From assembly GCA_041306075.1 (NCBI GenBank), contig JBFYKH010000008.1, positions 11,482 to 75,481 of the forward strand: 64,000 nt of DNA, read 5' to 3'. Made by a program: the position numbers and the translations under genes. Shown here in pieces: positions 13,063-60,445 of the stretch. A model generated the notes under the pieces. It was not told the origin of the DNA, did no database searches, and was given only the letters and a program-made list of their open reading frames with translations. Within the stretch, counting starts at the first letter, position 1. Every line of letters starts with the position of its first letter. The DNA is from Candidatus Altiarchaeota archaeon. GTDB taxonomy: Archaea > Altiarchaeota > Altiarchaeia > IMC4 > SCGC-AAA252-I15.

Positions 13063-13063
13063 G

Positions 13064-27124: not shown

Positions 27125-27168
27125 TTCGTTTAAGCATATTTATGCATTTGAGCATCGAAAAAGAGAAA

Positions 27169-28607: not shown

Positions 28608-28760
28608 ATGGGCGACATGGACGGCGAAGTTTACAACGCCATAAGGGAGATACAGAACGAGGTGTACTACATCCACGAGATTCTGAAGGACATTAACAAG
28701 ACCAACAAGTCCCTCTTGGACGAGATAAAGGGCCTCAGGAACGAGCTGAAGACCAGGTGA
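28608..28760 (+). CDS. Small (50 aa) coiled-coil protein MGDMDGEVYNAIREIQNEVYYIHEILKDINKTNKSLLDEIKGLRNELKTR, not in ORF track
   Basis: The TATA-like tttaaaag at 28579-28586 lies ~22 nt upstream of the ATG. Clean heptad-like composition. Confidence 0.3.
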   Translation: MGDMDGEVYNAIREIQNEVYYIHEILKDINKTNKSLLDEIKGLRNELKTR

Positions 28761-28761
28761 G

Positions 28762-29229: not shown

Positions 29230-29393
29230 TTCCTCCCTCCGTGCTTTTTCACCAGTTTCTTCACCTGTTTCTCGGTGGGGGCGACCGGCCCAATGTATTC
29301 GAGGCACTCCTGCCTGACGGCGGCGCCGTCCCTCACGCTCCTGACCAGGTAGTAGTACTGCCTGCCCTTGATGGTCTTCTTCCGCACGAACAT
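29226..29393 (-). CDS. Small basic protein (55 aa) MFVRKKTIKGRQYYYLVRSVRDGAAVRQECLEYIGPVAPTEKQVKKLVKKHGGRK; conserved archaeal K-x-x-K-G-x-x-YYYL N-terminal module; not in ORF track
   Basis: Reverse-strand translation. The start lies 3 nt after the proC stop and the stop overlaps the next start. The KGRQYYYLV motif recalls a recurrent archaeal small DNA-binding-like module. Confidence 0.5.
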   Translation of the reverse strand: MFVRKKTIKGRQYYYLVRSVRDGAAVRQECLEYIGPVAPTEKQVKKLVKKHGGRK

Positions 29394-29395
29394 CT

Positions 29396-42278: not shown

Positions 42279-42635
42279 ATGGCCCCACACATTAATATCA
42301 GTCAGATGGACTTGATGACTTCCGGCGCATACCAGCTCTACAGGCTTTTGCGTGGCTCGGGAGACGCCGAGTTCACTTTCCGGAGGGTGGAGCCCAAGTC
42401 CGAGGACCGCAACCCCGATGAGCCGAGGTTCAACTTGGCGCCTGGGGCCGGCTATTTCGTCTACCCGATACCGCACACGACTTTCAACGAGGTCCTGAAG
42501 GCGATACATGGCATCAACGACATCGTTGCGATAAACAAGGCTAACCTCATCCTGACGGTGGACCCTGCGGCGCTGAGCGAACAGCAGTTTCATCTCCTGT
42601 CCCGGGAGTTCATAGAATTCTCCCACGCCAAATGA
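42279..42635 (+). CDS. Hypothetical protein (possibly Roadblock/LC7-like), start uncertain
   Basis: ORF 4-nt overlapped (ATGA) with the downstream NurA-like gene. The start is placed after the divergent HAD gene; alternative ATGs at 42309 and 42318. Confidence 0.4.
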   Translation: MAPHINISQMDLMTSGAYQLYRLLRGSGDAEFTFRRVEPKSEDRNPDEPRFNLAPGAGYFVYPIPHTTFNEVLKAIHGINDIVAINKANLILTVDPAALSEQQFHLLSREFIEFSHAK

Positions 42636-45176: not shown

Positions 45177-48100
45177 TCACTCGCCCTTGTTCAGGGCTTG
45201 GAAGTACGCCACCCTGATTTTCGCGCCTATCTCGCTGATTTCCACTGCAAGCTTCCTGTATTCGCGCTGGTTCAGGGAGGCCGTCAGCCTGCTTGCCCCG
45301 GCTTCGAGGCCGCCGGTGTCGCCGCCCCGCCGTTGTATCTCCGTTATCATCGCCTGATGCCGGGCGACGACCGCTTCGAGCCGCGTGTACATGGACGAGT
45401 CCTGCTCCTCCGTCCGGCGCTCGCTCTCCACTGCCTTCTTGAGGGCGTCCTCCTCCCGCTGCATCTCCTCCGCTTTCTTCCTCGCGGCCTCCTGCCGCTC
45501 CATAGCCGTAAGGAGCCTCCAGGCTGCCAAGTCCGCAGTGAGTTTGTCCATGGCCTTTTGCCTGAGTTTGTCCAGGTTGTCTTTCCGCTTTTGCGCCTCC
45601 TTTATCTCTTCAGGCGTCGGCTCCGGGGTTTCCGGTGCGCGCTCCCGCTGCTTCGGCTCCTGGGTTTCGGAGGTTCGCTCAGGCGGCTTCGGCTCCCAAT
45701 TCGTCTGCGTCTTGGGCAGGGGGCCGCCGGACGTCGAGTCGGCGGTGGTCGCCGTCGACTTTGGGGGGGATAGGTCTATCCCGAGGAGGGTGGTCTTCGT
45801 CTCCAGGTCGTTGACGCTCCTGGCCCCTAGCTTGTCCAGAAGCTCCTGGGCGCCCTCCTTGTCTCCTCCCTTGAGCCTGGCCTTCACCTCCCTCAATGTC
45901 GAGCGCTTAAGCTCCGCGGCCACTCCCTCGGGCGTAGCCTCGACCGTGGACCCTTTCTTGGCGTATTTCTGGAGCCTTCCGGCCGCATCCTCGGCCCTGC
46001 CGTTCTTCAGGAGTTCGATTGCATCGTCCCTGGTCTGCGCGCGGCCGACGTATTCGTCCACCATCCGGGCGTCCATCTTGGCGAGGCTGGACAGCCCTTC
46101 TATAGTGTAGGAGGTCTTCAGTATGTTGCTCATCGTCTCGTTGTCCACCTTCCCGCGTATCTTCTCAAGGCCGTCGATTGCGTTGTATATGCTGTCCTTC
46201 AGCCGCCTTTTCTCCTCGACCGTGAGGTCTTTGCCGTACGCTTCGATGTAGGTGTCCCGCAGATGCCGCCTGACCTCTTCCGAGCCCCTGAAGCCTCCCT
46301 CGACCGAAGCCTCCGCCGGGAAGTACGAGTTCATCTCGTTTATCATCCTGAACTCGACCTCCCTGCGCTTCAGTATGTGTTTCCTAAGCCGCTCTATCTC
46401 CTTCTCGTCCGTTATGCCGGCCGCCTTCACCCGCTCGTCAAGCTCCTTCCGGGTCGCCGCCTCCAGCGCCTCCTTCCGGAGCGTGCTCATCGTGGCGTCA
46501 ACCCTGAACTTCTCGTGCGCGGCCTCGTGGACGACCGTCCTTTCCGTGTCGCTCCCTATGCTGGCCTGGCTGCCCTTCTCCAGGATTTCTCCGGAGATTA
46601 TGTTCAGGCCGACCACTTCGCCCTTCTTCGGCGGAGAGTTGAAGCCCCCCCAGTTGCCCTTGCTCTCCATGAACTTGTCGACGAGGCCGGGGGAGTCTCC
46701 CTTGCCCTTCCAGTCAGCCTTGTCAACCACTATCGCGTAGGGGGATATGTCGCCTATGCCGCTCGCCCTCATCCGCTCCATGTAAGCCTCGTTCGTGCTC
46801 AAATCGATGAAACTAGCGGACTTCAGGTCTTCGGCGGTGACGTCCTTGCCCCGCCGTTTAGTCGACTCGATTAGGTAGTTTACCGCCGCCTCCCTCTCCT
46901 TGGAGCCTTCGGCGGCGTTGAGCCCGGACAGTATCGCCTTGTGCTCTTCCTCGGCCCGGTCGTGCCGTATCTGCCTGACATGCCTTAGGATTCCCTCGAC
47001 CTGCTGGCCTGAAGCGCCTTCGGACCGCATCTTGTCGGTGATGATTCTGTCGGACATGTTGTATAGCGTCTCGTTCGTGGCGATGCCAGTGTCCCTGTTC
47101 CTGCGCATCTTGTCGAGGGCGGTTTTGACCGACGCGTCCGTCATAACCTGGTCGGGACTCATGCCGGTCATCCTGCCGACCATCTCAAGCTCGGCCGCGG
47201 CCTCGTTGTTGTCGTAGAGGCTCACGCCGTTGCGTTTCAGCGATTCGGCGTACGCCGTCTGCTCAGGCGTCAACGGCACATCGGCTGCATAAGCTCCCGG
47301 CATCGGGGTCGAGACGCCCAGGGATGCCCTGTCTCTCCTGCCGGAACGGGCGCCGCCAGCATCGGCCACCTGGCCCCCGAGCGGCCCGGAGCTGCCAGTC
47401 GGCTCCTGCATCATCTGGCTTGCCGGCACGTCCGGCGTGATGCCGCTCTTCTGCCAGAATTCTCCGGGTTGTATTTGCTTTGAGAGCTCCGGGTTCGAAG
47501 AGTATATGGAGGCGAGGTTCCGGGCCTTGACTTCGCCTGAGTCGAGCCTCTTCACGTAGTCCTGCACGGTGCTGGACTTGTATATGTCCGGCATGTTCCG
47601 CTCGAAGAGCTGCCTCTGCCCGCTCTCCTGGCTGAGGAGGAACCTCCAGTTCGGGTTGTTGTGGTCGAGGAAGTCGGCCTCTGTCTTGTAGGGGCCCGTA
47701 CCCCAGTTAGCCCTCGTGAACGACGTGTTCAGCACGTCGAAGTGGCTTTGCATCCGCTCCGTCCCCGAGCCGTCCTCCTTCCAGCGGAACCATCCGTTCG
47801 GGTTCCTGAACCCGAGTTCGGAATGCGTCCTGAGGTTCTCTATGTCCCGGTCGGCAAACGACGGGAACATCCCCTTGAGTTCGGCGGACGAGTAGCGTTC
47901 GGTGTTGCCGTGCCCGCTAACCCACCCCTTGAGGGAGAGCTCCATGCCCGTGAACCTGTTCCTCTGCAGGTCGTCGCTGAGGCTCTGCGCCTGCACCTGG
48001 ACGGCCTTCATCTCTTCGTCCGCTATCTGGCCTGCGAGGCCGCCTACGTAGCCGAGGCCGCCGGCGACGGTGCCGAGGCCGGGAAGCACTACCGTGCCTT

Positions 48101-51100
48101 TGGCGAGGGCTTCGGCGAGGCCTACAGCCCCGTCCGAGTATGACCCTGTCGCTTGAGCGCCCTCCTGGTAGCCGGCGTACGTCGCGAAGCCGGCGCCGAG
48201 CGCCCTGCCCGCCAGCGGGCCGGCCTTTGCCGAGAACTTGGGCGCTATCTTGGCTACCCCCGCCTCCACACCTTTTTGCGCAAGGCCTAAGCCGGCCATC
48301 TGGGCCGTGCTCACCCCTAGGTTGGCGGCGACCTGGCCTGCTTCGACCGGTTTGCCGCGCAGGACGTCTCCGGCCAGGTCTATGGCCTCGAACTGGGCTG
48401 CACCCTTCACGGACGACGTCAGGTGCGTGCCGACGCTGCGGAACACTCCATGCTTGGGGGCCTGACCCCCATCAGGCTGGGCTGCCGGAGAGACCATATG
48501 CCTTGGCATCGCCGGCGCCTCCACGAGTTGACCATCCATGTAGATGCTTGTCAAGCGGACCCCGGGCGGAATCTTCTCCAGGGTGAGGGCGTCGGTTAGT
48601 CCTCCGCTGACATGCTTTACCTTGAAGTCGAGTGCGCCCTGCGGGTTCTCGGTTACTGTGAGTTTAGCCACGGGCGTTGGAGCGCTCGGGCCATGGAGTT
48701 CGCCGCCGGAGAGGGTCGATATTTTCTGGCCTATTGAGCCTTTTTTTCGCTCAAGGATTTGGCTTGGGTAATAGGGTTTAACTACCGTCCCTGAGGGTAC
48801 CGGTCCGGTACCCTCCATCCTCACCTTTGTCTGGAGGCCGATGTCGGACTGTCTGAACGCGCCCGTGCTGCATGAGTCCAGGACGGTCACGACCCGCCCG
48901 GTCTCAGGCACGGTCCCCCGTATTATCTCAAGTGCCCTTTCGTTCGGTATCTCCTCGGTCTTTATCCCTGAGAAGAGTCCGAATTTAGTCTTTTTACTGT
49001 AGAGGTCTGAGGTCTTGAGGTAGGCCGGAGAGTTGTGGAGGTCTCCCTGGAATCGCGGGTCCTGCTGGTACGCGTAGGGGTCGCCGAGCTGTATAGAGTC
49101 TGGCGTCCCGTGCCCGCCCAGTATCCTGTATTGTGGGGCGCCGACCATCCGGGTGTGGCGTAGCATGGCCCTGGCCAGTTCCGGCGTGTTGCCGGCCTCG
49201 TAGAACATAAAGCCGTGGTCTTGGGCGAGTTTTATGTTGTCGGCCTGGTTGTAGAGCGCCCCGTTCCAGTCGGCCTTTGCGTTGACTATGATTCCGGAGT
49301 GTTTCGGTTTATACTGGCCGGATTCTATGAGCCGGTGCTGGTTGTACTGGTTGAGTAGGGCGTCGACGCCGTATCTGCCGAAGACCGTAATGCCGTATCT
49401 TTCATTCAGCAGTTTGGCTGCGCCAGGCTGCCTTTGCTCCAGGTCGTTGAGGACGCCTATGTTTGAGCCAAGGTGGTAGGGATTGTTCGCCCACCATGTG
49501 ACTGCCGTCCTCCCAGGGTTCAGCCCGGTTTTTGCAATAACTTCTTGCGCTACGAAGACGCTGGCAAATTTTTCGGACGGGCTTCCCATCTTGGAGGAAT
49601 GCGGCGGGGGGAGCTTTAACTTGCCGTCAGGAGACGGCAGGGGCTCGCCTCTCATCGCCGCTGCCAGATTGCTAGTCAGCGCAGCCCGGTTGATTGTGTC
49701 GCCGCCGGCCATGACATCCCTCATCAGCGCCGTAGCCCCCTTGCCGAATTCAGGGTCGTTTGCCGCCAGCTCGATGAGGTACCTCATCTTCATAGTTTCC
49801 GAGGGCAGGGGCGGAAGGGTTGTGGCGCCCACCCGGAGGGGCTTGATTTCCTGGGCGAAGTGGTTCAGTAGTTCGCCCTGGTTCTGCTTCAGGAACTCCT
49901 TTGCCCCCTGGTTGCCGTTCTGGATTTGGGTGTTGAGTTCATGAAGGGTGTTGTTGGCGGCTGCCTTGTCGCTCAGGCTGTCGAGGATGGCCTTGCGGTC
50001 CGCCTCAGCCGACGGCCCCGTGCCTGCCGCCGAAGCCCATATGCTCGAAGGGAACGGGGTTGTTTTTGGCGGCGTCCCGGCTACGGGTGTGGCCGCCGCC
50101 CCCAGCTTTACCGCCGGCATCATGGTTTTGTCGGCGATGTATTCTTCCGACGTCTGGCCTGTGACGGCCGGCGCTATCTCGGCGCGCTCCAGGATGCTTG
50201 CGGGGTCGCGCTGGAACAGCCGGTTGACGCCGCCTGCGGAGTCCGCCATCCCGAGCACCTGCCGTCTCACGTTGTCCGGGTCCCTAACCGCCCCGGTGTG
50301 GGCCATCTGCGACAGCTTGGATTCGAACCTCCTCGCCTCCTCGGCCGTGGCTCCGAGCCTCTCGTCCTCCTTGGGCGTGGCCAGTAGGCTGTTGTATGCC
50401 TGCATCTTCGCCTCCTCCTGCCGGTTCTCCGCTTCAATCCGCTCCGCGTATCTCTTGGCCTTCAGCTCGTCCTCGCTGACCGGCTGCCGGTCGGCTCCGG
50501 GGGGATTGGGTGCCGTCCCTTGTGGGGCCGGGGCTCTGGCCGTAGGCTCCCCGCCCGAGGGCACCGGCGCGCCGACCTTGGGCATCGGAGCGGCCGGAGG
50601 CTTCATGGGGCCTTGTGTCTGGATTTTGACGCCTGAGCCGTGCGCCGGCCCCGGCGATTCGGCCTGCCCCGGCGTCTGGGCTTCTGTTGTCGCGTTGACG
50701 GACGGGGGGATTTGCCGTCCGAGGCTGCCAGACTGCGCTCCGTCCTCCCTCATCACGGAGACGCCGCCGCCCGATGTGCCGGACGACGTCGACGAGACGA
50801 CGGTTGCGGGAGACTGCGATTCCTCGCTCATTGATGGCGACTCCTCTGCTGGCGCGCGCCTTGACGGCGGCCGTGGCTGTTGCGGCTGCCCCATGGAAGG
50901 AGGCCTCGCGGCTGAAGCCCGGGTTGCGCGGCGCGCAGCCGATTGCCCGCCGCCCGTCAACACCGCCGCCTGGGAGGATGACGAGGGAGCGTCCGGCGAG
51001 GACGGTGGGGATGGGGCTGAGGCCGCCCGCTGCAGCGTCGTCCCCGCTCCTGCCGCCCCGGCTCCGGCGATTACCGGGGCCGTGGACGCGTTGATTGGCA

Positions 51101-52412
51101 TGCCTGCGGGCGCCGTGGAGCCGCTTGCCCCATGCGCGCCCGAGGCGCCTGAGGAGGACATGGACCTTGGGCCGACACGCCCGCCCGAGAAAGGGGACCT
51201 TCCGCCCATAAACGGCCCGCCAGGCTCGCCGAGCCTGTCCATAGGCGAGTCCGGGACCTGCCCCTGCGCGCTTGGGCCGCCGCCCACGTGGTCGCCCACC
51301 AGGCGGCCGATTGTGAACAGCTGGGCGGACGTCGTGACCGCGGTCGCCACGCTGCCTGAGCGCATCCAGGTACCGAGGAACCTCGTCATCTGGGTCACAG
51401 GCCTCACACCCGACACAGTTACGAGGGCGCCTATCCACCCCATCATCTGCATGCCAACCATGGGGGCGAGGAGGACTCCGAGGTAGGCGGCTAGCATGAG
51501 TATGAAGTCAAGGAGCGTCGGGGCGTACGCGGTGTTCGCGAGCATGAGGCCGACGCACAGGAACAGCGTCTGGAGTATCTGGACCATGAAGATGAGTATC
51601 GTGAACTTCCAGAGCCTGGTTCCGATGCCCCGCATTGAGAAGAGCGGGTTCGGTATGTCCGTGAAGAACATGAAGAGGATGAGCGGGAATATGCACGCCA
51701 TCACGTAGACGAGGAAGTACCGGTAGGCGGCAAGCGGCGCCGCAATAGCCGTGACTATGAGGAAGAACAGCATGGTGCAGCAGTATTTCGCTTCGGTGAA
51801 CGTGAAGACCACGGTCGACACCGTGGTGACCGAGGACCGGGACAGCGCCGTCTGTATGAGGGTGTCGCATATCTCCCGGACTATGTCCAGCATGAACTGG
51901 AATATCGCCGGCGAGAGCGAGACCAGGACCATGCCGACGAACACTCGGACGAACATGTCCTTCGCGTTCACCCTCCCCTGCGGGGAGCCGGACATGAATA
52001 TCAGGTAAATACCTATCATGATTATGGCGAGGGCGTAGAAGAGCTGCAGCATCTCCATTATCCTGACGTTGACCGCCCGGATGCCCTGGTCCTCCGGCAT
52101 GCTGAACTCGACCTGGCCGCCGTCTATCAGGTGTATCACGTATGCCTCGCAGTCGCCGCTCGGCGCAAAGACGCACGGGTTGATTTGCGTGAACACCCAG
52201 ATGGGCGTGAGCGTCACCTCCAGTATGGTTTCCGAGACCAGTTCGACGAACGCCTTGGCCGCCTCGAAGACCATGAGGACCCACAGGTTGGCGCCCCAGA
52301 TCTGCGCGATAACGGGGGTTGCTATGAGGAGGAGGACGGCGAAGGCTATCGCTAGCCTGCGTGCGACGACTTTTCGGCCTTTCGGCTCCCCGTCTTGAGA
52401 ATCTGCCATCAA
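45177..52412 (-). CDS. Giant (2411 aa) polytopic membrane protein: signal peptide + ~6-TM module, Pro/Ser/Gly/Ala-rich linker, ~1600-aa hydrophilic region with caspase/CHAT-like His...Cys motifs, HExxH motif and C-terminal coiled coil
   Basis: Single uninterrupted ORF. The N-terminal TM module is homologous to that of the upstream 52409..55585 gene (FYALAIIMIGIYLIFMSGSPQGRVNAKDMFVRVFVGMVLVSLSPAIFQFMLDIV vs LYALLIILTGIYYVWASISPNIRAMVKTQLTYLIVGMIACGLSLQIFDILLEL). 4-nt start/stop overlap (ATGA) with the upstream gene. Confidence 0.8.
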   Translation of the reverse strand: MMADSQDGEPKGRKVVARRLAIAFAVLLLIATPVIAQIWGANLWVLMVFEAAKAFVELVSETILEVTLTPIWVFTQINPCVFAPSGDCEAYVIHLIDGGQVEFSMPEDQGIRAVNVRIMEMLQLFYALAIIMIGIYLIFMSGSPQGRVNAKDMFVRVFVGMVLVSLSPAIFQFMLDIVREICDTLIQTALSRSSVTTVSTVVFTFTEAKYCCTMLFFLIVTAIAAPLAAYRYFLVYVMACIFPLILFMFFTDIPNPLFSMRGIGTRLWKFTILIFMVQILQTLFLCVGLMLANTAYAPTLLDFILMLAAYLGVLLAPMVGMQMMGWIGALVTVSGVRPVTQMTRFLGTWMRSGSVATAVTTSAQLFTIGRLVGDHVGGGPSAQGQVPDSPMDRLGEPGGPFMGGRSPFSGGRVGPRSMSSSGASGAHGASGSTAPAGMPINASTAPVIAGAGAAGAGTTLQRAASAPSPPSSPDAPSSSSQAAVLTGGGQSAARRATRASAARPPSMGQPQQPRPPSRRAPAEESPSMSEESQSPATVVSSTSSGTSGGGVSVMREDGAQSGSLGRQIPPSVNATTEAQTPGQAESPGPAHGSGVKIQTQGPMKPPAAPMPKVGAPVPSGGEPTARAPAPQGTAPNPPGADRQPVSEDELKAKRYAERIEAENRQEEAKMQAYNSLLATPKEDERLGATAEEARRFESKLSQMAHTGAVRDPDNVRRQVLGMADSAGGVNRLFQRDPASILERAEIAPAVTGQTSEEYIADKTMMPAVKLGAAATPVAGTPPKTTPFPSSIWASAAGTGPSAEADRKAILDSLSDKAAANNTLHELNTQIQNGNQGAKEFLKQNQGELLNHFAQEIKPLRVGATTLPPLPSETMKMRYLIELAANDPEFGKGATALMRDVMAGGDTINRAALTSNLAAAMRGEPLPSPDGKLKLPPPHSSKMGSPSEKFASVFVAQEVIAKTGLNPGRTAVTWWANNPYHLGSNIGVLNDLEQRQPGAAKLLNERYGITVFGRYGVDALLNQYNQHRLIESGQYKPKHSGIIVNAKADWNGALYNQADNIKLAQDHGFMFYEAGNTPELARAMLRHTRMVGAPQYRILGGHGTPDSIQLGDPYAYQQDPRFQGDLHNSPAYLKTSDLYSKKTKFGLFSGIKTEEIPNERALEIIRGTVPETGRVVTVLDSCSTGAFRQSDIGLQTKVRMEGTGPVPSGTVVKPYYPSQILERKKGSIGQKISTLSGGELHGPSAPTPVAKLTVTENPQGALDFKVKHVSGGLTDALTLEKIPPGVRLTSIYMDGQLVEAPAMPRHMVSPAAQPDGGQAPKHGVFRSVGTHLTSSVKGAAQFEAIDLAGDVLRGKPVEAGQVAANLGVSTAQMAGLGLAQKGVEAGVAKIAPKFSAKAGPLAGRALGAGFATYAGYQEGAQATGSYSDGAVGLAEALAKGTVVLPGLGTVAGGLGYVGGLAGQIADEEMKAVQVQAQSLSDDLQRNRFTGMELSLKGWVSGHGNTERYSSAELKGMFPSFADRDIENLRTHSELGFRNPNGWFRWKEDGSGTERMQSHFDVLNTSFTRANWGTGPYKTEADFLDHNNPNWRFLLSQESGQRQLFERNMPDIYKSSTVQDYVKRLDSGEVKARNLASIYSSNPELSKQIQPGEFWQKSGITPDVPASQMMQEPTGSSGPLGGQVADAGGARSGRRDRASLGVSTPMPGAYAADVPLTPEQTAYAESLKRNGVSLYDNNEAAAELEMVGRMTGMSPDQVMTDASVKTALDKMRRNRDTGIATNETLYNMSDRIITDKMRSEGASGQQVEGILRHVRQIRHDRAEEEHKAILSGLNAAEGSKEREAAVNYLIESTKRRGKDVTAEDLKSASFIDLSTNEAYMERMRASGIGDISPYAIVVDKADWKGKGDSPGLVDKFMESKGNWGGFNSPPKKGEVVGLNIISGEILEKGSQASIGSDTERTVVHEAAHEKFRVDATMSTLRKEALEAATRKELDERVKAAGITDEKEIERLRKHILKRREVEFRMINEMNSYFPAEASVEGGFRGSEEVRRHLRDTYIEAYGKDLTVEEKRRLKDSIYNAIDGLEKIRGKVDNETMSNILKTSYTIEGLSSLAKMDARMVDEYVGRAQTRDDAIELLKNGRAEDAAGRLQKYAKKGSTVEATPEGVAAELKRSTLREVKARLKGGDKEGAQELLDKLGARSVNDLETKTTLLGIDLSPPKSTATTADSTSGGPLPKTQTNWEPKPPERTSETQEPKQRERAPETPEPTPEEIKEAQKRKDNLDKLRQKAMDKLTADLAAWRLLTAMERQEAARKKAEEMQREEDALKKAVESERRTEEQDSSMYTRLEAVVARHQAMITEIQRRGGDTGGLEAGASRLTASLNQREYRKLAVEISEIGAKIRVAYFQALNKGE

Positions 52413-55400
52413 CCACCCCCCCGGCCGGGTTTCTGTTTGGCCAGGGATTCGATGAGGGCGTACCTTTGCGCCCGGTTAACGTCGTTGTTGGCCCTCGCCA
52501 GGTATTCGCCCTGGTTTGTGACGCCAGCCCAGTTCTTCTTGGCCGCGTCCGAGTATGCGAGGTATGCCGCGTGATACCGCACGTTCTGGCTGCTCATCCT
52601 GGATTTGACAGCCCCTCCCGAGAGCGCATCCTTGGCCGCGTTCAGGTACTGCTCACGCTCATTCTGGCCGAGGCCCGAGTAGACCTGCCAGGCCACGGCC
52701 TCGCCGTCTCCGACGTCGGAGTATGCGCTGTCGCGCCTGTCGCGGGCGGACCTGAGGTTTGCCGCGGCCGCCCCGGACGTCCTTTCCCATTCGGCCACGT
52801 CATGGCCGAACAGCTTCTGTTCTGCGGCGGACAGGCCGGTCCACGTCTTGCCCATGATGGCAGCCGCTTCCGCCTGCGGGAGCGCCTTCCAGCCGGGGCT
52901 GTTCAGGTCCTTCGATTCGAACGCCGCCTGGGCTCTTGATTCGCTCTTCTGCCTGCCTTCGGCGGCATCGGACAGTTCGTCCCTGGCCTTAGACACGCCG
53001 TCCAGGGAGAGGTCTTGGGGGGATGTGGTGTAAAGACCCATGAGCCCTACGTCCGTGATTGTGGTCTGCACGGCCTGCGACTGCGAGACCCCGGCATACC
53101 TTCCGTACGCCTTGTTCATCGCCTGCTCGACCCTGCTCCTTGATTTCGCGTCCTGTGCGCCCTCGTAGTCCTTCTTCCAGCCCATCCGCTTGCGCATGTT
53201 CTCCGGTGTCGCCTCCCACACGTCCTGCCGGTCCAACAGGACGGCGTTGCGGTTGGCGTCGAGGGCCTCGGCTTTCGCGAGCTTGTCGTTGGCTCCGCCC
53301 TTGCCGTCGTAGCCGAGCTGGGCCTGCCGCCATTGTGGCGTGCCCCCCCACGCCTTGTCTTCAGTGACCGCTGCCGCGCGCTGGTAGAAACCGTACGCCC
53401 GGTCGACTGCCCCGGCCCGGGTGGACGGGTCATCCTCCTTGTAGCCGAACGACTTCAGTTCCCGGTCGGTGAGGGATGCGCGGACCTGGTCCTTGGACAT
53501 CTGCCCCCCGTTCTTGGCTTCGGCCTCCATTAGCTTCTCCTGTATCGGCTTGCGTTCCTGCGCCTTCGCGCGGATGTTGTTGTGCGCCTCCCCGTCTCCT
53601 GCCACCCTCTCGCCCATCCGCTTGAACATCCTTGTGCCTGTGCCCATCGCGACCGCGGCAGTGGCCATTATACCGAGGCCCACCACGGGCGCCATGGGCA
53701 GCATGAGAAGTGCTATTGGAAACCCTAGTTTAGAGCCGAGTATTGCTGCCTTCACCGCCGGCGGCGTGCCCTCTCCCGGCTTGTATCCCTTGTACATGTC
53801 GGCTGCGGTGTTCGCGAGGTCTCCGGATATGCCCTTGACGCTGAGCCAGCCGTGGTTGAACATGGTCTTGCCGGTCGCAGGGTCCTTCTCCCAGCGGCCG
53901 GTCATCTTCCACGAGACGTTGGCAAGGCTCTTGCCTATCGGGTAGTCGGCTATGCTTCCGCGGAGCATGCCCCTCAGGAAGTAGCCGGCGGGGGGCAAGA
54001 GGAACTTCGCGTTGGCTGCGAGGCCGGCGGCCTGCCACCCCACCTTCCCCAGGCCTGAGGACTGCGCGTAGCGCATGCCATAGTACTGCTGCGACGACAT
54101 GTACTCCGGGGGCGTGCCGGCCTCGACCGGGTCCCCGAAGAGCAGCCTGTTCCGCCTCTCCTGTAGGCTGATGCCCTTGTCGAAGACGCCTCCGCCGGCG
54201 GCTCCCGTCTCCCGGACGCCGTCCCCGAGGCCGCTCTGTGCATAAGTCGGCTTAGACCCCGACGCCGCAAGATGCTCCGCTGAAGCCTTCCTGGCGCCTT
54301 CGGAGTACGGCGGCGGAGGCTGAGCCGCCCCGGCGCCAAGCGGCCCATCCCCCCTTGAGGGGATGTTGTAGCCCGCGGCCGACGCCTCGGAGGCCTGAGT
54401 CCTCGACGACAGCCGTTCCGCGTGCATGGCAGCCGAGGTTATGGCCGCGGCGCCCTGGCCCTGTATCATGCTCCCGATGAACACCAGCCTCGGGTTGCCC
54501 ATAGTCTGGCCCGCGTAGATGAACGCGGCTCCTGCGATGCCGGTCATGCTGGCTATCATCATCGGGCTGAACCCTATCATCGCGAACGCGACGAGCGCCG
54601 CCATGGCGCTCGTCAAAGCCATGCCCAGGGAGGACGCGGTGTCGAGGAAGGCCTGGGACAGCACCATGAATATGGCCATGGGAATCGGCAGGAATATCCA
54701 CGTCAGCGTGAGCTTCATCAGCTTGTTGCCCATGCCCCGGAGGTAGTCGAACGACATGCAGAATACCGTGAACGGAAATATACCGCCGAAGACCAGGACG
54801 ACGTCGAAGCGGATGGCCAGTATTATGTACGGGAGGATTATCGCGGCCACGAGCATCAGCACGATAGGCCATATGAGCGCGACCCCGACTCCGCCGGTGG
54901 CGACGAGTATCAGCGCTATGATGCTGCCTCCGACGGCTACTCCCGGGAGTCCGGTCTTCAGGAACCCCGTGATAGGGTCCCAGTTGGTTGGCACTATCCG
55001 GTTGCCAGCAAACTGGACGCTCAGTATCTCGTCGAGGAGGAAGTTGTTCAGTTCGAGGAGTATGTCGAATATCTGCAGGGAGAGCCCGCACGCTATCATG
55101 CCGACTATCAGGTAGGTGAGCTGCGTCTTCACCATGGCGCGGATGTTCGGGGATATGGACGCCCAGACGTAGTATATTCCCGTCAGTATTATGAGGAGGG
55201 CGTAGAGGGGTATCAGGAGGTTGAATATCGTCGGGGCCAGGAACTCCCGTATCACCGGGTGCCTGGAGTCAAGGTCGCGTATCTGGACCGGGACGACGCC
55301 CAGGAACTTGCTCCTCTTCCCGTAGAGGAGGCCCATGAACATGCCCCTGTAGGTCTTTATGCCGCTGAGGGAGTGGAGCATCGTGTCGCCGCCTTTTGCG

Positions 55401-55585
55401 ACTATGACCTTCCCGGACTGGTCCTTGGCGTTATCGGTGTCCTTCGAACTCCTCTTGTCCATATCCTCCCCGGTGAGGGGATTCTCGTTGCCCTGGGCCT
55501 GGACGGAGAGGGCGTACTGTGACAACAGGAGGCAGGACGCGACATAGACGAGTAAAACGCGTTTTATTATCTCACCCTTCGCCAT
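52409..55585 (-). CDS. Large (~1058 aa) polytopic membrane protein, paralogous N-terminal module to the 2411-aa protein, helical C-terminal region with one extra TM pair
   Basis: Signal peptide MAKGEIIKRVLLVYVASCLLLSQYALSVQAQG. Start set at 55585 because the TATA-like cttaaatata overlaps the first ATG at 55609. Six TMs, then a Gly/Ala/Pro linker and an Ala/Lys/Glu-rich helical domain. Confidence 0.8.
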   Translation of the reverse strand: MAKGEIIKRVLLVYVASCLLLSQYALSVQAQGNENPLTGEDMDKRSSKDTDNAKDQSGKVIVAKGGDTMLHSLSGIKTYRGMFMGLLYGKRSKFLGVVPVQIRDLDSRHPVIREFLAPTIFNLLIPLYALLIILTGIYYVWASISPNIRAMVKTQLTYLIVGMIACGLSLQIFDILLELNNFLLDEILSVQFAGNRIVPTNWDPITGFLKTGLPGVAVGGSIIALILVATGGVGVALIWPIVLMLVAAIILPYIILAIRFDVVLVFGGIFPFTVFCMSFDYLRGMGNKLMKLTLTWIFLPIPMAIFMVLSQAFLDTASSLGMALTSAMAALVAFAMIGFSPMMIASMTGIAGAAFIYAGQTMGNPRLVFIGSMIQGQGAAAITSAAMHAERLSSRTQASEASAAGYNIPSRGDGPLGAGAAQPPPPYSEGARKASAEHLAASGSKPTYAQSGLGDGVRETGAAGGGVFDKGISLQERRNRLLFGDPVEAGTPPEYMSSQQYYGMRYAQSSGLGKVGWQAAGLAANAKFLLPPAGYFLRGMLRGSIADYPIGKSLANVSWKMTGRWEKDPATGKTMFNHGWLSVKGISGDLANTAADMYKGYKPGEGTPPAVKAAILGSKLGFPIALLMLPMAPVVGLGIMATAAVAMGTGTRMFKRMGERVAGDGEAHNNIRAKAQERKPIQEKLMEAEAKNGGQMSKDQVRASLTDRELKSFGYKEDDPSTRAGAVDRAYGFYQRAAAVTEDKAWGGTPQWRQAQLGYDGKGGANDKLAKAEALDANRNAVLLDRQDVWEATPENMRKRMGWKKDYEGAQDAKSRSRVEQAMNKAYGRYAGVSQSQAVQTTITDVGLMGLYTTSPQDLSLDGVSKARDELSDAAEGRQKSESRAQAAFESKDLNSPGWKALPQAEAAAIMGKTWTGLSAAEQKLFGHDVAEWERTSGAAAANLRSARDRRDSAYSDVGDGEAVAWQVYSGLGQNEREQYLNAAKDALSGGAVKSRMSSQNVRYHAAYLAYSDAAKKNWAGVTNQGEYLARANNDVNRAQRYALIESLAKQKPGRGGG

Positions 55586-55695
55586 GCCATTTAGGATTTG
55601 GTGTTGCATATATTTAAGGGGTATTTGGACGGGTTCGCGGCCTTTTTTTAACGTTTTATTGGCGCTCGGGTAATGTAGTTCAAGGTAGCGTCAAA

Positions 55696-56427
55696 ATGGC
55701 CTCGGACAGATGCCAGACGGGCATAAAGGGATTCGACGAACTTGTTGGCGGCGGCCTTCCGAGGGGGAGGACGATACTGGTGAACGGCTCGTGCGGCACC
55801 GGCAAGACCGTGTTCTCGACGCAGTTCCTCTACAACGGGGCGGTGCATTACGGCGAGCCCGGGATATACGTCATGCTGGAGCAGGACGTCTGCGAGTTCA
55901 AGGACGACATGGCGGGCTTCGGCCTCAACCTGCAGAAGCTGCAGTCCGAGGGGAAGCTGGTCATAATCAACGCCAGCCTGACGAAGAGGGAGGGGGGGAA
56001 CTTCCTGGAGCTCAAGTCCGAGACGCACGACATAAGCCCGGACATGGCCTCCGTCAACAAGATTTGCGACGTGATACAGGAGGCGGCGACGAAGATAAAG
56101 GCCAAGAGGGCGGTAATAGACAGCCTCAGCTCGATGACGATAACCTTCGACGACACGCAGGCCTTGAGGAGGGTCGTCCTGGACCTGAACTACACGCTGA
56201 AGAAGATGGGCTTAACCACCCTCATCATATCCGACGAGATAGCCGGCGACGTGACCGAAGCCGCCCAGAAATACGTGGTCGACGGGGTCCTGACGCTCAG
56301 GTATGTGACGGTCGGGCCCGACCCGGGCAGGACGCTGGTGATAGACAAGATGCGCAAGACCCGCCACAGCGAGAACATACACGCCTTGAAGTTCACAAAG
56401 GATGGCATTGAGATTCAGAAGGAGTAA
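55696..56427 (+). CDS. Single-domain KaiC/RadA-like (RecA-superfamily) ATPase
   Basis: GIKGFDELVGGGLPRGRTILVNGSCGTGKTVFSTQFLYNG (Walker A), Walker B LVIIDSLSS. ~240 aa, as in ArlH/KaiC-like archaeal ATPases. Confidence 0.85.
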   Translation: MASDRCQTGIKGFDELVGGGLPRGRTILVNGSCGTGKTVFSTQFLYNGAVHYGEPGIYVMLEQDVCEFKDDMAGFGLNLQKLQSEGKLVIINASLTKREGGNFLELKSETHDISPDMASVNKICDVIQEAATKIKAKRAVIDSLSSMTITFDDTQALRRVVLDLNYTLKKMGLTTLIISDEIAGDVTEAAQKYVVDGVLTLRYVTVGPDPGRTLVIDKMRKTRHSENIHALKFTKDGIEIQKE

Positions 56428-56431
56428 TGTG

Positions 56432-57991
56432 ATGAAGGGCACCCCCTACCTCTTGTTCCTGGCCTTGGCGCTCGCGGCCCTGCCGTCCGCCTCGGCGCAG
56501 GTCGAGCAGGCGCCGAGGATGGAGCCGCTCGCGCTCTACGAGCCGCCAGAGGCGCAGGACGAGTACGCCGGGGACGTGGGGAGGGCGATAACCCGGTACT
56601 TCTGCCAGGGCGTGGGGGACGGCGGCCGCTGCAGGATACAGGAGGCCTGGGACAGCCGCCTCCAGGGAGTGTGCTGCTTCGGCTCATGCTGGTTCGGCGC
56701 CGCGAAATGCGTCCAGGGCACGCAGCCGAAACCCCAATACGACCTCTACGGCATGTTCCAGAAGTTCGCGTGCAACGGCGTCCAGGAGGGCCTGGACTGC
56801 ATGATACCAGATAAGCTTTCCGCGGAGGTGGGCTACAAGCTCTCCGGGAAATGCTGCCGCGGCCGCTGCATGCTCGGCTCCACCGGCTGCGGGGGCATAT
56901 GCGGGGACGGCTTATGCACCGACCAGGAGAGGGCCGGTGGAAACTGCCACGACGACTGCGGAAGCTCCTGCGGCGACGGCTACTGCACCGACCGGGAGCG
57001 GAAGGACGGGAACTGCATGGAGGACTGCGGCGGCTCAAGGCCGCCGGAAGCGGGCGGAGCCGACTTCGAGGGCAGGCTCAAGGAGATGGAGGCGCTCGCC
57101 TGCCTCGGGGTCGCGGACGGCAGGGCGTGCAACCTCCCCAAGGACCTTCAAACCACCTTCGGGCTAAGCGGAGTCTGCTGCGGAGGAAGATGCGCGTACA
57201 GGAGGACCATTTGCGAAAAAAAACCCGTGGCCGCGAAGCCGGACCTGGCCGTGTCAGCCATCAGGGTGAGCCCGAAAGTCCACGGAGTCGATGAGCCGGT
57301 CAACGTGACCGTGGACGTCAAGAACATCGGGGACGGCCCGGCGAACGCCAGCTTCTGGGTGAGGCTGAGGGTCGAGGACCGCTCAGGAAGGGATTTGGCC
57401 GACTACGACGTGGAGGTCAACGGCCCGATGGCCCCGGAAGCCTCGGCCGAGGCGGCGTTCCATGACGTGTCATGCCCCGCCGACGCGAACCCGTGCATAC
57501 TGAAGGCCGACGTGGACGAAGGCAGCGGCCTCATGCCCGCCAGGATGGACCGGGTGGACGAATCCAGGGAGGACAACAACTTCGCAGCTGTCGGCTTCAA
57601 CGCCAGGGAGAAGCCGTGGGAACCCCCATGCGGCGACGGAGTATGCTCCGAGGGGGAGAAGTGCGACGCCGACTGCAGGCGCGAAACCCCGGCGGACAAC
57701 ACGCAGGCCATCGCCTTCGCCGCCCTGGCCGTTGGGGCGCTCGCCCTCGCCGCGTACCTCGTCACGAGGAGGAGGGGCCCTAAACCCGAACCAGCGAAGC
57801 CCTCCCAGGGCCAGTCCGTGGAGGATTTGACGAGGCAGAAGGAGGAGATAGAGAAGATGCTCGAAATCGCGAAGGCGAAGTACCACCGGCGCGAGCTAGA
57901 CGAGGAGAGCTTCAGGGAGATAGTCAGGGACAACCAGAAGAGGATAATAGAGCTCGAACTCAAGATAAGGGTCAACAGGCCCTTCGACTAG
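56432..57991 (+). CDS. Cys-rich modular surface protein: signal peptide, three ~40-aa six-Cys modules, two CGDGxCTxxER-x4-NC-x2-DCG repeats, CARDB-like Ig domain, TM anchor, cytoplasmic coiled-coil tail
   Basis: Modules ...CQGVGDGGRCRI...GVCCFGSCWFGAAKC / CNGVQEGLDCMI...GKCCRGRCMLGSTGC / CLGVADGRACNL...GVCCGGRCAYRRTIC. Repeats ICGDGLCTDQERAGGNCHDDCGSSCGDGYCTDRERKDGNCMEDCG. CARDB-like PDLAVSAIRVSP...VNVTVDVKNIGDG. TM AIAFAALAVGALALAAYLV. Confidence 0.7.
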   Translation: MKGTPYLLFLALALAALPSASAQVEQAPRMEPLALYEPPEAQDEYAGDVGRAITRYFCQGVGDGGRCRIQEAWDSRLQGVCCFGSCWFGAAKCVQGTQPKPQYDLYGMFQKFACNGVQEGLDCMIPDKLSAEVGYKLSGKCCRGRCMLGSTGCGGICGDGLCTDQERAGGNCHDDCGSSCGDGYCTDRERKDGNCMEDCGGSRPPEAGGADFEGRLKEMEALACLGVADGRACNLPKDLQTTFGLSGVCCGGRCAYRRTICEKKPVAAKPDLAVSAIRVSPKVHGVDEPVNVTVDVKNIGDGPANASFWVRLRVEDRSGRDLADYDVEVNGPMAPEASAEAAFHDVSCPADANPCILKADVDEGSGLMPARMDRVDESREDNNFAAVGFNAREKPWEPPCGDGVCSEGEKCDADCRRETPADNTQAIAFAALAVGALALAAYLVTRRRGPKPEPAKPSQGQSVEDLTRQKEEIEKMLEIAKAKYHRRELDEESFREIVRDNQKRIIELELKIRVNRPFD

Positions 57992-59019
57992 GCGTGGCTA
58001 ACCAGCTTGGCCGAGCCCCCCTGTCCGCCGCCCCACCAGCGCACGGAGTATCTCCGCCCGTGGAGCGTGAGCGTGCTGGAGCAGGTCATGTCGAAGTCCG
58101 ATGAGAGCGCGGGAGACGATGCGCGAAGCTTCACCCCGCCGGGCGCAAGCCCCACGACCCTGAAGTACGCCCCGTCGGCTGTTACGTTCCTGCCGCCGTC
58201 CACTATGAAAGCCGACGCCCCCGGGTAGACCACGACGTCCCGGGAACAGTACCTGTCCCCCCCGTGGCGGCCGTAGTCGGCGGAGTCGTCCAAGAGGTAG
58301 ATGAGGGCGCGCCCCCCTCCCAGTCGCGTGTCGAGGACGCCGTACTCGAGCGTCCTCCAGTAACCTATGCCGCCTTCGGGGACGTCGACGAGGACAGTCT
58401 CGTTGCCCCTCGTCAGCCGCAGCTTGACCTTCCCGGAAAGGAGGTTGTCCAGGCTGACGTTGTATCCCGCGTACGTCCTCGTCGACAGCCCGCCGCCTAT
58501 CGTCAGCGGCCTGCCGCCCTGCGGCGTCTTCTCCCTGACCTCCGCGTTCTCCACCAAAGCCAGCGTCAGGTCGCCCCCCTCCCCGGTTATGGACGCCTCG
58601 ACCCCGTCGATGAGCGCCCGGTGGGAGACCTCAAGCCGGTCCCAGTAGCCTTCGGACGTGTTGTATTCAAGCTCGTAGACTGGCCTGCCATCTGACTCCT
58701 CCACGCCTGTCAGGTAGAACGTCATCCCCCCCGCCCGCAGGTAGACGCGCTGCTTCAGGGGCAGCCTCATGGTGGTGGTAGTGGACGTAGACGACGTCGT
58801 GGACTCGATTATCCTGGCGGCCTTGAGGGTCGTCGAAGTCGTCGGCGGACCCCTCAGGGGGTTTATGGGGACGTACCTGTGGGTGGACGTCGTGGGGCCT
58901 TTGGTGGTGGACGTCATCTCCTTTGCGGACACCTTCTCGTCCTCGGGCACTCCCGGCGGCTGAATAAGGCATCCCGACAGCACCAGCATGAGGGTCACGC
59001 ACGCGACAGGAAGCCTCAT
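57988..59019 (-). CDS. Secreted lipoprotein-like hypothetical protein with Thr/Ser-rich linker
   Basis: Signal + lipobox-like MRLPVACVTLMLVLSGC, T/S-rich stretches (TSTTKGPTTST, TTSSTSTTTT), beta-rich remainder. Confidence 0.5.
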   Translation of the reverse strand: MRLPVACVTLMLVLSGCLIQPPGVPEDEKVSAKEMTSTTKGPTTSTHRYVPINPLRGPPTTSTTLKAARIIESTTSSTSTTTTMRLPLKQRVYLRAGGMTFYLTGVEESDGRPVYELEYNTSEGYWDRLEVSHRALIDGVEASITGEGGDLTLALVENAEVREKTPQGGRPLTIGGGLSTRTYAGYNVSLDNLLSGKVKLRLTRGNETVLVDVPEGGIGYWRTLEYGVLDTRLGGGRALIYLLDDSADYGRHGGDRYCSRDVVVYPGASAFIVDGGRNVTADGAYFRVVGLAPGGVKLRASSPALSSDFDMTCSSTLTLHGRRYSVRWWGGGQGGSAKLVSHA

Positions 59020-59050: not shown

Positions 59051-60445
59051 CTACGCCTTGCCCATGAACCTGCGGAACATCGGACTCATGTCGGCCATCT
59101 CCTCCTTCCGTATGTCCTCGTACAGGCGGTATATGATCCCGACCGTCAGGAGTATGCCGGTGCCAGAGCCGAGCGCCCCCATGAGGTCGGCGACGGTGGC
59201 GAGCAGTCCGACTGCGACGCTGGATATGATGGTGAGCTGCGGGATGTACTTGTCCAGCACGTTCTTGATTATCCTCGAATCCGGCCTGAACCCCGGGACC
59301 TGCATGCCGCCCTCGTGTATCTGCTTCGCCATGCTCTCGCTGTCCAGGTTAGTCGTCTGGACCCAGAACTGGCCGAAGAGGACGCAAAGGCCGCAGAAGA
59401 CGATGGAGTATACGACGAGGTGCAGGAGTATCATGGGGTCGAGCAGTATGTACAAATTGTCCGGCTGCAGGACGCCGTATAGGTTGCCGAGGGTGATGTA
59501 CTGGGAGACCGTGTAGATTATCTCCTGGAAGAACGTCATGTTGTCCGGCCTCGCGCCGCTTACCGTGTCCACGCCTGCGAACCCGGTCCACATGCTCACG
59601 TTCATCAGGAGGGCCGACGCTAGTATCACCGGGATGTTGCTGACGTAGAAGAACCTGAGGGGTATCCTCCCCCCGATGCCGCGTATGCTTCCGTAAGAGA
59701 GCGGAATCTCAATCCGCATGGCCTCGAAGTAGACGACGGCCAGGAATACGATGACTGTGGCGAAGAGGGGCGCCAGTATTATGAGGTTCATCGTCCCTGA
59801 CGTCATCTGCGCCAGGAAGTTGATTATGTACCCGGAATACGCCAGGCCCCCGGTCCCCTTCAGCGGGTTGAGCGAGCCCGTGATTATCGTCTGGGCGACG
59901 CCGCCCGCTATGAACAGCGATATCCCCGACCCTATCCCCCACTTGGACACCACCTCGTCCATGTACATGAGGAGTATGGAACCCATCGCAATCTGGAATA
60001 TGGTGAACGCTATGAGGCCCGGGGTGTCCACCATGTTCGTCGCCATGACGAGCGCGCCTGCCTCGAAGAACGCTATTATAACGGTGAGTATCTTCTGCGT
60101 CCCCTGGAAGAGGGCCTTCCCCTCCCGGGTCTTGATGTTGATTTTTATCATCTCCGCGCCGACTAGGAGCTGGAGTATGATGGAGGCCGTGACGATGGGG
60201 CCGATACCCACGGACGTGAGCGAGCCTATCGTCGACGCGAATATCATCGTCATCTGCTCGAAGCCGCGTATGTGCTCCTCCAGGTTCTCGACGGTGACAC
60301 CGTACGGGTAGACGGTGCCCATTATGAAGAACAAAGCCAGGACCACGGACGTCCAGGTGAACTTCTCCCTGAACGGAACCTTGCGGGATGGAATCTTGAC
60401 TTCCGGGAGGTACTTCAGCAGGGGCCGAATGAACTCCAAATCCAT
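59051..60445 (-). CDS. secY: Preprotein translocase subunit SecY
   Basis: 10-TM SecY/Sec61alpha pattern. Position at the end of the spc ribosomal operon. Confidence 0.9.
   Translation of the reverse strand: MDLEFIRPLLKYLPEVKIPSRKVPFREKFTWTSVVLALFFIMGTVYPYGVTVENLEEHIRGFEQMTMIFASTIGSLTSVGIGPIVTASIILQLLVGAEMIKINIKTREGKALFQGTQKILTVIIAFFEAGALVMATNMVDTPGLIAFTIFQIAMGSILLMYMDEVVSKWGIGSGISLFIAGGVAQTIITGSLNPLKGTGGLAYSGYIINFLAQMTSGTMNLIILAPLFATVIVFLAVVYFEAMRIEIPLSYGSIRGIGGRIPLRFFYVSNIPVILASALLMNVSMWTGFAGVDTVSGARPDNMTFFQEIIYTVSQYITLGNLYGVLQPDNLYILLDPMILLHLVVYSIVFCGLCVLFGQFWVQTTNLDSESMAKQIHEGGMQVPGFRPDSRIIKNVLDKYIPQLTIISSVAVGLLATVADLMGALGSGTGILLTVGIIYRLYEDIRKEEMADMSPMFRRFMGKA

Follow-up and report, generated by a model that had tools for sequence, protein, structure and literature searches.

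A 64-kb stretch of a Candidatus Altiarchaeota genome, referred to below as the window, carries two consecutive minus-strand genes that encode giant membrane proteins, designated giant 1 (g1-type) and giant 2 (g2-type). The two proteins are likely to represent an Altiarchaeota-specific pair of extended VirB6/TrbL-like inner-membrane proteins, i.e., satellite paralogues of a minimal chromosomal apparatus that resembles a type IV secretion system (T4SS) and is distributed throughout the phylum. Each giant is predicted to consist of a signal-like N-terminus, a small outside segment, a helical hairpin similar to VirB2 pilins, three to four additional helices and a long mosaic hydrophilic tail. The apparatus itself would be encoded at a different locus, with genes for several pilins of the VirB2 type, a VirB3/PrgI-like protein, a VirB4-like ATPase and two other VirB6-like proteins; no relaxase or coupling protein was found among them. 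The status of the window pair as satellite VirB6-like proteins follows from the VirB2/3/4/6 cluster present in the same related genomes.

Homology between the N-terminal modules of the two giants was shown by BLASTP (E 6e-18, with 24% identity across 274 aa), and their alignment contains the invariant residues R146, K150, R230, P242, R260, G263 and P316. A preliminary description of the locus, made from the DNA sequence alone, had already viewed the giants as paralogous polytopic proteins, and both lines of evidence bear this out. By hydropathy, each giant has a signal-like helix at the N-terminus and, further on, 5-6 hydrophobic segments within ~aa 120-330. The helices proposed originally were therefore recovered, whereas the ~90-aa exposed segment said to precede them is clearly hydrophilic in giant 2 only; in giant 1 this region was predicted by AlphaFold2 to be partly helical and hydrophobic. 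The N-terminal outside segment of giant 1 contains an invariant Cys pair. Taken together, the hydropathy, the AlphaFold2 helices, the Cys pair and the Arg/Lys-rich alternate loops describe a polytopic domain of ~5 or more helices with an extracytoplasmic N-terminus, as is characteristic of VirB6.

The fold of the module was modeled with AlphaFold2 for aa 1-385 of giant 1, using a seven-sequence alignment (predicted local distance difference test score, pLDDT, 68; predicted template modeling score, pTM, 0.61). The closest structural matches were TrwI/VirB6 of plasmid R388 (best) and Legionella DotA (second). Two TrwI/VirB6 chains headed the Foldseek results, with a probability of 0.82-0.84 and E-values of ~0.5, which are not significant alone, and the predicted module of giant 1 shares the three-dimensional fold solved for VirB6.

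The first two transmembrane (TM) helices of the core form the hairpin that recalls VirB2. The Pfam family T4SS_pilin matched the hairpin of giant 1 below threshold (E 0.0011, 19.5 bits versus a cut-off of 26.6), and a similarly sub-threshold match was obtained for the module of giant 2 (E 0.012). A hidden Markov model (HMM) of the module, which scored the giant 2 module at E 4e-125, was matched by genuine pilins from the VirB4 loci described below, exactly at positions ~104-172, i.e., at the hairpin. Two hairpin residues, R146 and K150 (giant 1 numbering), are among the invariant positions. Similarity between the N-terminus of VirB6 and VirB2 pilins has been reported both for CedA/CedA1 of the Ced/Ted systems and for VirB6/VirB2 of A. 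tumefaciens (PMC9905601), and the hairpin-pilin match in the giants agrees with this relation.

The family to which the module belongs was opened up by an exhaustive HMM search rather than by word-indexed homologue searches, since the latter returned only 5 and 2 close relatives, and only 2 with a 17-sequence profile, for which hydrophobic words swamped the candidates. With a limit of E 1e-3, the HMM search yielded 443 cluster representatives, of which 323 scored below 1e-10. They are 131-2584 aa long and invariably carry the module at the N-terminus. When 67 of the shorter members were scanned individually against Pfam, 11 matched TrbL/VirB6 (best E 3.1e-6) and 13 matched T4SS_pilin (best E 1e-5); for two long members, P0005 and P0043, TrbL_3 matches were available as precomputed annotations. 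Nearly all of the named members are hypothetical proteins of "Candidatus Altiarchaeota" or "Altiarchaeales", the exceptions among cluster members being one labeled Thermoplasmata and one labeled Coatesbacteria. From these labels, the family is judged to be essentially restricted to Altiarchaeota.

The fold, the Pfam matches within the family and the pilin-like hairpin thus constitute three independent lines of support for membership of the module in the VirB6/TrbL superfamily. The resemblance to VirB6/TrbL, which had been proposed from architecture, is thereby strengthened by fold, by family-level Pfam matches and by the genomic context of the paralogues. The relationship to VirB6 would nevertheless be remote, as judged from the module profile, which retrieved no VirB6 from the sequences of the PDB. 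By comparison, the view that the giants are ordinary permeases or transporters is scarcely tenable. They are indeed polytopic membrane proteins, and one Altiarchaeota member of the family, P0014, was named a DMT family transporter by NCBI, a name that we consider wrong. No transporter family of Pfam or NCBIfam was matched, however, while the fold search was headed by VirB6 and DotA, with no transporter ranking close to them, and the family matches were to TrbL and T4SS_pilin. A generic permease identity was consequently rejected.

The gene cluster that would encode the core of the apparatus was examined at locus L008, where it contains, in order, a T4SS pilin, a VirB6-like protein of 1650 aa (P0043), a 154-aa Zn-ribbon protein, a VirB6-like protein of 590 aa, a 168-aa protein, a PrgI/TraC-like (VirB3-type) protein, a VirB4-like ATPase (DUF87, P-loop_TraG, AAA_10) and three further pilins; archaeal housekeeping genes lie on both sides. 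With the L008 VirB4-like protein as query and one genome per species, 31 loci were collected; the protein is 63-80% identical in these 31 species-level genomes, almost all of which are titled Altiarchaeota. The layout recurs among the loci: VirB6-like proteins of ~1630 and ~650 aa, a PrgI-like protein, VirB4 and between two and four pilins. The Pfam gathering scores are exceeded by VirB4 and both pilins in L011, where SepRS comes after the cluster and neither a relaxase nor a coupling protein was found in it. Three of the VirB4 loci share an assembly with a conserved pair of giants, namely JAZDMS (L039 with the pair L001), JBDRLL (L011 with L002) and CAZPLO (L010 with L009). VirB6-like paralogues of the same family are encoded together with VirB4, and the giants co-occur with it in three genomes, the pair itself lying apart. 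The absence of canonical partners noted in the preliminary description applies within the window, but not to these related pair-carrying genomes, in which VirB4-, VirB3- and VirB2-like proteins are encoded on other contigs.

Further variation was noted among the loci. In low-GC Altiarchaeales, five short (~310-670 aa) VirB6-like paralogues occur in tandem (L031, 6987-12919; L037, 1170-6462; L044 and L045, ~3100-11900), adjoining VirB3/VirB4-like genes in L031 and L037, an array reminiscent of Rickettsiales with their four to five copies of VirB6. In several loci, a large N-terminal ectodomain is joined to a T4SS-pilin domain (L008, 20988-21638; L007, 5288-8809; L022, 12301-13788; L026, 12411-14630; L024, 12287-14542). 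These ectodomains are Cys/Asp-rich, thrombospondin-type-3-like or contain MopE/PKD; such proteins may be tip or adhesin pilins. A protein of ~155 aa with a zinc-ribbon motif (CPVCG...C..CG) is located between the two core VirB6-like genes in L008 (14802-15266) and 10 other VirB4 loci, and no Pfam family was matched by it.

VirB6-like genes are typical of conjugative elements, and the locus could in principle be what is left of an integrated conjugative element or plasmid. An ABC transporter set and a gene for a CARDB surface protein, both within the first 10 kb of the window, might be taken in this sense. Such an origin is nonetheless most improbable: in six genomes, the pair is found at one and the same chromosomal site, flanked by housekeeping genes, its GC content is like that of the rest of the window, and neither an integrase nor a relaxase or coupling protein was found. 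Likewise, the VirB4-like identity of 63-80% across the 31 species-level genomes fits vertical inheritance, and on these grounds the conservation and spread of the cluster are considered to go far beyond those of a mobile element.

The giants themselves form two orthologous lineages, which all-against-all BLAST resolved into a g2-type gene upstream and a g1-type gene downstream, retained as a coupled pair. The pair is located at the same chromosomal position, beside genes for AMP phosphorylase, NurA, a DUF835 protein and a HAD hydrolase, in the window and in L001, L002, L003, L004 and L009; the AMP phosphorylase and NurA genes were identified by Pfam downstream of giant 1. The g1 orthologues (1389-2584 aa) are intact and syntenic in L001-L004 and L009, and g2 orthologues of 1026-1727 aa immediately precede the g1-type gene in L001, L002, L003 and L009, with a partial counterpart in L004. 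Degeneracy of the genes, which the preliminary description had named as a sign against its view, was not observed: all copies of the pair are intact in the six genomes. Between the window and L003, the ratio of nonsynonymous to synonymous substitution rates (dN/dS) is 0.18 for the TM module of giant 1 and 0.09 for that of giant 2, as compared with 0.19-0.29 for the alignable tail blocks of giant 1, 0.20 for the tail of giant 2, and 0.04-0.08 for KaiC and AMP phosphorylase. Since this range (0.09-0.29) denotes purifying selection, the giant genes are considered functional and not decaying. The DUF835 gene, which precedes NurA in L001-L004 and L009, is represented in the window by its last ~50 residues only (42462-42611, plus strand, detected by tblastn), and thus appears to have been truncated or deleted in this genome.

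The tails are of 2030 aa in giant 1 and 666 aa in giant 2, and both therefore have the several hundred hydrophilic residues that distinguish extended VirB6 proteins. The tails begin with a linker, in which, for giant 1, Pro, Ser, Gly, Ala and Thr account for 61-76% of the residues in segments across aa 401-600. Although the TM modules of the window and L003 are 87% identical, the giant 1 tails can be aligned only at aa 557-762, 1323-1673 and 2271-2410. The second of these blocks is 73% identical to aa 1410-1758 of the L003 protein (dN/dS 0.19), while the third is 57% identical to aa 228-367 of the product of a stand-alone L003 gene (14040-15143). Other blocks have relatives solely in genomes that are more distant: aa 894-1110 match the g1 protein of L001, and aa 1782-2169 are 32-38% identical to aa 1504-1876 of the L004 g1 protein, with H181, E182, A183 and H185 of the alignment invariant. 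Region 474-755 of giant 2 recurs with 26-44% identity in the g2-type proteins P0025, P0028, P0030, P0031, P0033 and P0036. The N-terminal part of the family of the stand-alone L003 gene (M[A/S]DDLCPEC..., lacking a signal peptide) forms a separate gene in L001 (17019-17582) and is fused to the g1 protein in L002 (aa 1885-2064). This pattern is attributable to fission and fusion of the C-terminal module within the locus. The dN of the tails is two to three times that of neighboring housekeeping genes, and the tails are thus judged, from these comparisons, to be mosaic and fast-evolving, yet under purifying selection.

Two of the tail regions of giant 1 carry conserved motifs of catalytic appearance, i.e., GGHGTP ... 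(D/A)SCSTGA and HEAxH. The alpha/beta domain with the former motif (aa 894-1289) was compared with the caspase-like fold of clan CD, but the model was poor (pLDDT 42.7) and gave only generic Rossmann-like matches. The HEAxH motif, of the zincin type (HExxH), is conserved in two sequences and has no Pfam or PDB sequence match. Searches of PDB sequences with the g1 tail and with profiles of the alpha/beta and HEAxH domains gave no meaningful match. A protease function of these modules may be entertained as an idea suggested by the motifs.

As to the location of the tails, Arg/Lys-rich loops are present at aa 139-155, at aa 250-270 and beyond the final TM helix, and the tails contain 0-4 Cys per 650-2200 aa, versus 32 in the ectodomain of the neighboring CARDB protein. 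The C-terminal module, when encoded on its own in relatives, lacks a signal peptide. Moreover, TPR, SNAP and HhH domains are found in the tails of other family members. These features lean towards a cytoplasmic location, as in VirB6 of A. tumefaciens.

Several observations weigh against the assignment of the giants to a VirB6-like apparatus. VirB4, VirB3 and pilin genes are absent from the window and from the vicinity of the pair in every genome examined, and the co-occurrence of pair and VirB4 cluster rests on three related genomes, which do not include that of the window. Direct scans of both giants against Pfam, NCBIfam and PHROG gave no match; the TrbL models (PF04610 TrbL and PF19590 TrbL_3) failed to match them even at E up to 10, so that the gathering scores of TrbL and TrbL_3 are not reached by the window proteins, and the sub-threshold T4SS_pilin matches are the sole Pfam signal on the giants. 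The fold search, in turn, is qualified by its E-values and by the only moderate confidence of the model, and no VirB6 was found in the PDB by the module profile. Finally, the extended VirB6 tails of Anaplasma are surface-exposed (PMC7648143), and the cytoplasmic placement proposed here may consequently be wrong.

An alternative is that the giants are stand-alone membrane-anchored proteins of effector, adhesion or toxin-like nature that operate without the VirB4/pilin apparatus, an ancestral VirB6-like module being reused as a mere anchor and the activity residing in the swappable tails. The pair was never found beside VirB4 or pilins, only about half of the g1 tail can be aligned between such close relatives as the window and L003, the tail modules form a patchwork among lineages with conserved H/C and HEAxH motifs, and the tail dN is elevated as described above. 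The VirB4 clusters, however, already contain long (~1630 aa) and short VirB6-like paralogues, and the TM module, including the hairpin, is the most constrained part of the giants, which is unexpected for an anchor. In addition, the Pfam, NCBIfam and PHROG scans revealed no toxin or adhesin domain in the giants. This alternative is accordingly regarded as unlikely.

If the giants are satellite VirB6-like paralogues, their membrane modules would oligomerize into a channel or platform at the base of a pilus or conduit, by analogy with the VirB6 pentamer of R388, and would be energized by the VirB4-like ATPase. The paralogues may then act as alternative platforms, on which pilins would be assembled and through which substrates would pass. 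Their tails may serve as modular cytoplasmic adaptors or scaffolds, or possibly as cargo that is displayed or released. A more speculative extension, which we advance with considerable reserve, is that tails with swapped cassettes, among them protease-like modules that may act on the tails themselves or on their targets, are displayed, released or employed as adaptors for the exchange of DNA or protein between cells, for example in biofilms or with episymbionts.

Among known systems, the closest parallels are the extended VirB6 proteins of Rickettsiales (RvhB6a-e; VirB6-1 to -4 of Anaplasma and Ehrlichia) and TraG of the F plasmid, which, like the giants, combine a VirB6/TrbL domain with a very long hydrophilic extension. 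The Rickettsiales proteins are also tandem paralogues with extensions that vary between strains, and their T4SS is chromosomal and vertically inherited, with genes scattered over several loci (PMC7648143). Unlike them, the giants reside in an archaeal host, their module is too divergent for a direct TrbL match, the pair is located outside the virB3/virB4 operon, and the tails are mosaic rather than composed of tandem repeats. The Ced/Ted systems, in which CedA/TedA are VirB6-like, CedA1/TedC VirB2-like and CedB/TedB VirB4-like, likewise represent a domesticated, minimal T4SS without relaxase on archaeal chromosomes, and the homology of the VirB6-like N-terminus to the pilin (PMC9905601) is the same relation as that seen here. 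In contrast, Ced/Ted belong to Crenarchaeota and have a single-copy VirB6-like protein of ordinary size, whereas the Altiarchaeota have multiple paralogues (up to five in tandem), which are often giant, together with several pilins. This likeness was drawn from the components and from published descriptions. The chromosomal T4SS of Patescibacteria (Candidate Phyla Radiation, CPR) displays the same Pfam signatures as the Altiarchaeota cluster (T4SS_pilin PF18895, PrgI, and AAA_10/DUF87 for VirB4) and both systems are near-universal, vertically inherited and devoid of relaxase (PMC12102498); the Patescibacteria hosts, however, are bacteria, and neither giant VirB6 tails nor satellite pairs appear in that report. 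The top structural matches, R388 TrwI/VirB6 and Legionella DotA, are only 6-14% identical in sequence to the giant 1 module, and TrwI is a tailless protein of ~260-270 residues.

The T4SS-like machines known in archaea are, for the most part, those of conjugative plasmids and the Ced/Ted DNA importers of Crenarchaeota. Full-text literature searches found no publication linking Altiarchaeota with VirB6, VirB4, type IV secretion or conjugation, and an archaeal T4SS-like system that spans a phylum and has mosaic VirB6 paralogues of giant size thus appears to be unreported. It would add a third archaeal case, i.e., a conserved chromosomal apparatus of a whole phylum, in which VirB6 has multiplied and expanded to >2000 residues, and, if true, would be the equivalent in archaea of the Rvh system of Rickettsiales and the system of Patescibacteria. 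For ~440 clusters of "hypothetical proteins", an anchor for structure and function would be gained, and the "DMT transporter" label would be corrected. The giants would also offer a natural system in which to study the role of extended VirB6 tails, a question still open for Rickettsiales pathogens. Altiarchaeota are uncultivated, fix carbon in the subsurface and have unusual cell envelopes as well as episymbionts, and the proteins described here would be testable candidates for their exchange of DNA or their contact with neighboring cells.

The features of the locus are collected in Table 1. All five of the open reading frames (ORFs) described previously were recovered in the window ORF map and its translations. 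Giant 1 comprises 2410 aa from the ATG at 52409, the start of the public protein P0001; the alternative TTG at 52412 gives 2411 codons, the size quoted originally. The giant 2 ORF encodes 1066 aa, and the earlier figure of ~1058 aa corresponds to the public model P0006 only (1058 aa). At the junction of the two genes, GGT GGT TGA TGG, the overlap is either 4 nt (TTGA, TTG start) or 1 nt (TGATG, ATG start). The overlap recognized earlier is hence confirmed, although its motif is one of these two and not ATGA; in either case the genes are tightly coupled, and translational coupling of the giants is predicted.

Table 1. Positions of genes and protein regions at the locus of the giant VirB6-like pair (window coordinates).
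Feature	Coordinates	Strand	Remarks
Giant 1 (g1-type)	45177..52409	-	2410 aa from ATG; putative extended VirB6-like protein
Giant 1, signal-peptide-like N-terminus, aa 1-35	52305..52409	-	hydrophobic aa 19-37; putative cleavage between ...PVIA and Q
Giant 1, VirB2-pilin-like helical hairpin, aa 106-174	51888..52094	-	TM - SGSPQGRxxAK loop - TM; sub-threshold Pfam T4SS_pilin
Giant 1, remaining VirB6-like TM core, aa 175-335	51405..51887	-	
Giant 1, Pro/Ser/Gly/Ala/Thr-rich low-complexity linker, aa 381-650	50460..51269	-	composition
Giant 1, alpha/beta domain, aa 894-1289	48543..49730	-	GGHGTP and (D/A)SCSTGA motifs conserved
Giant 1, conserved tail block with Gly/Ala-rich amphipathic stretch, aa 1323-1673	47391..48443	-	match to L003 g1
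Giant 1, tail domain with conserved HEAxH, aa 1782-2169	45903..47066	-	match to L004 g1
Giant 1, C-terminal coiled-coil module, aa 2271-2410	45180..45599	-	homologous to separate downstream gene in relatives
Giant 2 (g2-type)	52409..55609	-	1066 aa; putative extended VirB6-like paralogue, upstream of and coupled to giant 1
Giant 2, VirB6-like TM module including pilin-like hairpin, aa 108-400	54410..55288	-	homology to giant 1; module HMM
Giant 2, conserved post-TM region, aa 474-755	53345..54190	-	extra hydrophobic segment aa 619-648 (hydropathy)
Single-domain KaiC-like ATPase	55696..56427	+	Pfam KaiC; neighbor outside the VirB6-like system
Cys-rich CARDB membrane protein	56402..57991	+	Pfam CARDB; 26-nt overlap with KaiC gene
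Lipoprotein-like gene	57988..59019	-	lipobox LSGC
secY	59051..60445	-	Pfam SecY E 1.1e-67

The genes for the KaiC-like ATPase, the CARDB protein, the lipoprotein-like product and SecY were all located as described earlier (by the ORF map and, for KaiC, CARDB and SecY, by Pfam), and recomputation of the gap between giant 2 and the divergent KaiC gene returned the same 86 bp. The single-domain KaiC-like ATPase was readily verified by Pfam (KaiC, PF06745; E 7.7e-62, 209 bits versus a cut-off of 26.6) and by its Walker A motif, GSCGTGKT. Its designation as an ArlH-type motor ATPase was rejected, since it scored 61.8 bits against the NCBIfam ArlH cut-off of 215 and the window contains no ArlI or ArlJ; more generally, no VirB4-, PilB-, ArlI- or ArlJ-type gene was found in the 64 kb. 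The proposed architecture of the CARDB protein was substantiated, with a CARDB domain above the cut-off (25.2 bits versus 22.7), 32 Cys in an ectodomain of 435 aa, a TM segment at 436-454 and a charged coiled-coil tail of 75 aa, predicted to be cytoplasmic. Its sequence contains repeated C-x-G...C and CGDGxC motifs.

In the preliminary description, the giants, KaiC, CARDB and lipoprotein-like genes were combined into one envelope machine, in which a KaiC hexamer would dock onto the cytoplasmic loops. The divergent genes, only 86 bp apart, have the same arrangement in L003 (96% and 70% identity for KaiC and CARDB, respectively), and in the VirB4 locus L026 a distant KaiC paralogue (8194-8970, minus strand, 25% identical) is located beside the VirB3-like gene. 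The neighborhood, however, is not conserved: KaiC and CARDB accompany the giants only in the window and its close relative L003, whereas in L001 and L002 AbpE lies directly upstream of g2, preceded by Fer4 and HcyBio. Similarly, no KaiC homologue was found near 30 of the 31 VirB4 loci, and a metagenome scan with g1-type modules produced only four new loci, none of them with KaiC. The ATPase is not ArlH, and the window encodes three CARDB proteins. A single machine of this composition is therefore very unlikely.

The displaced genes indicate how the present neighborhood may have arisen. The block P5CR ... HTH-CBS / HcyBio / Fer4 / AbpE is found in the window at 23257-29752, ~21 kb from the pair on its far side, and its displacement indicates an inversion or rearrangement breakpoint exactly in the region upstream of giant 2. 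The adjacency of KaiC and CARDB to the giants would follow from this rearrangement, and KaiC, CARDB, the lipoprotein-like gene and secY are accordingly interpreted as neighbors placed by lineage-specific rearrangement, the link of secY to the giants being rejected as incidental. Archaeal single-domain KaiC-like ATPases are often paired with membrane or signaling partners, and KaiC and CARDB probably form a separate two-gene module, with the CARDB protein as the partner of KaiC.

The two further CARDB proteins of the window are secreted proteins with a C-terminal anchor, each encoded beside a MacB-type ABC transporter; the two transporter sets (ABC_tran with MacB_PCD/FtsX permeases) are located at 997-5207 on the minus strand and 9778-14269 on the plus strand. 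Another putative surface protein, a secreted FG-GAP/beta-propeller protein of 711 aa that also has a helical region and ends in a TM anchor, is encoded at 18892-21027 on the minus strand.

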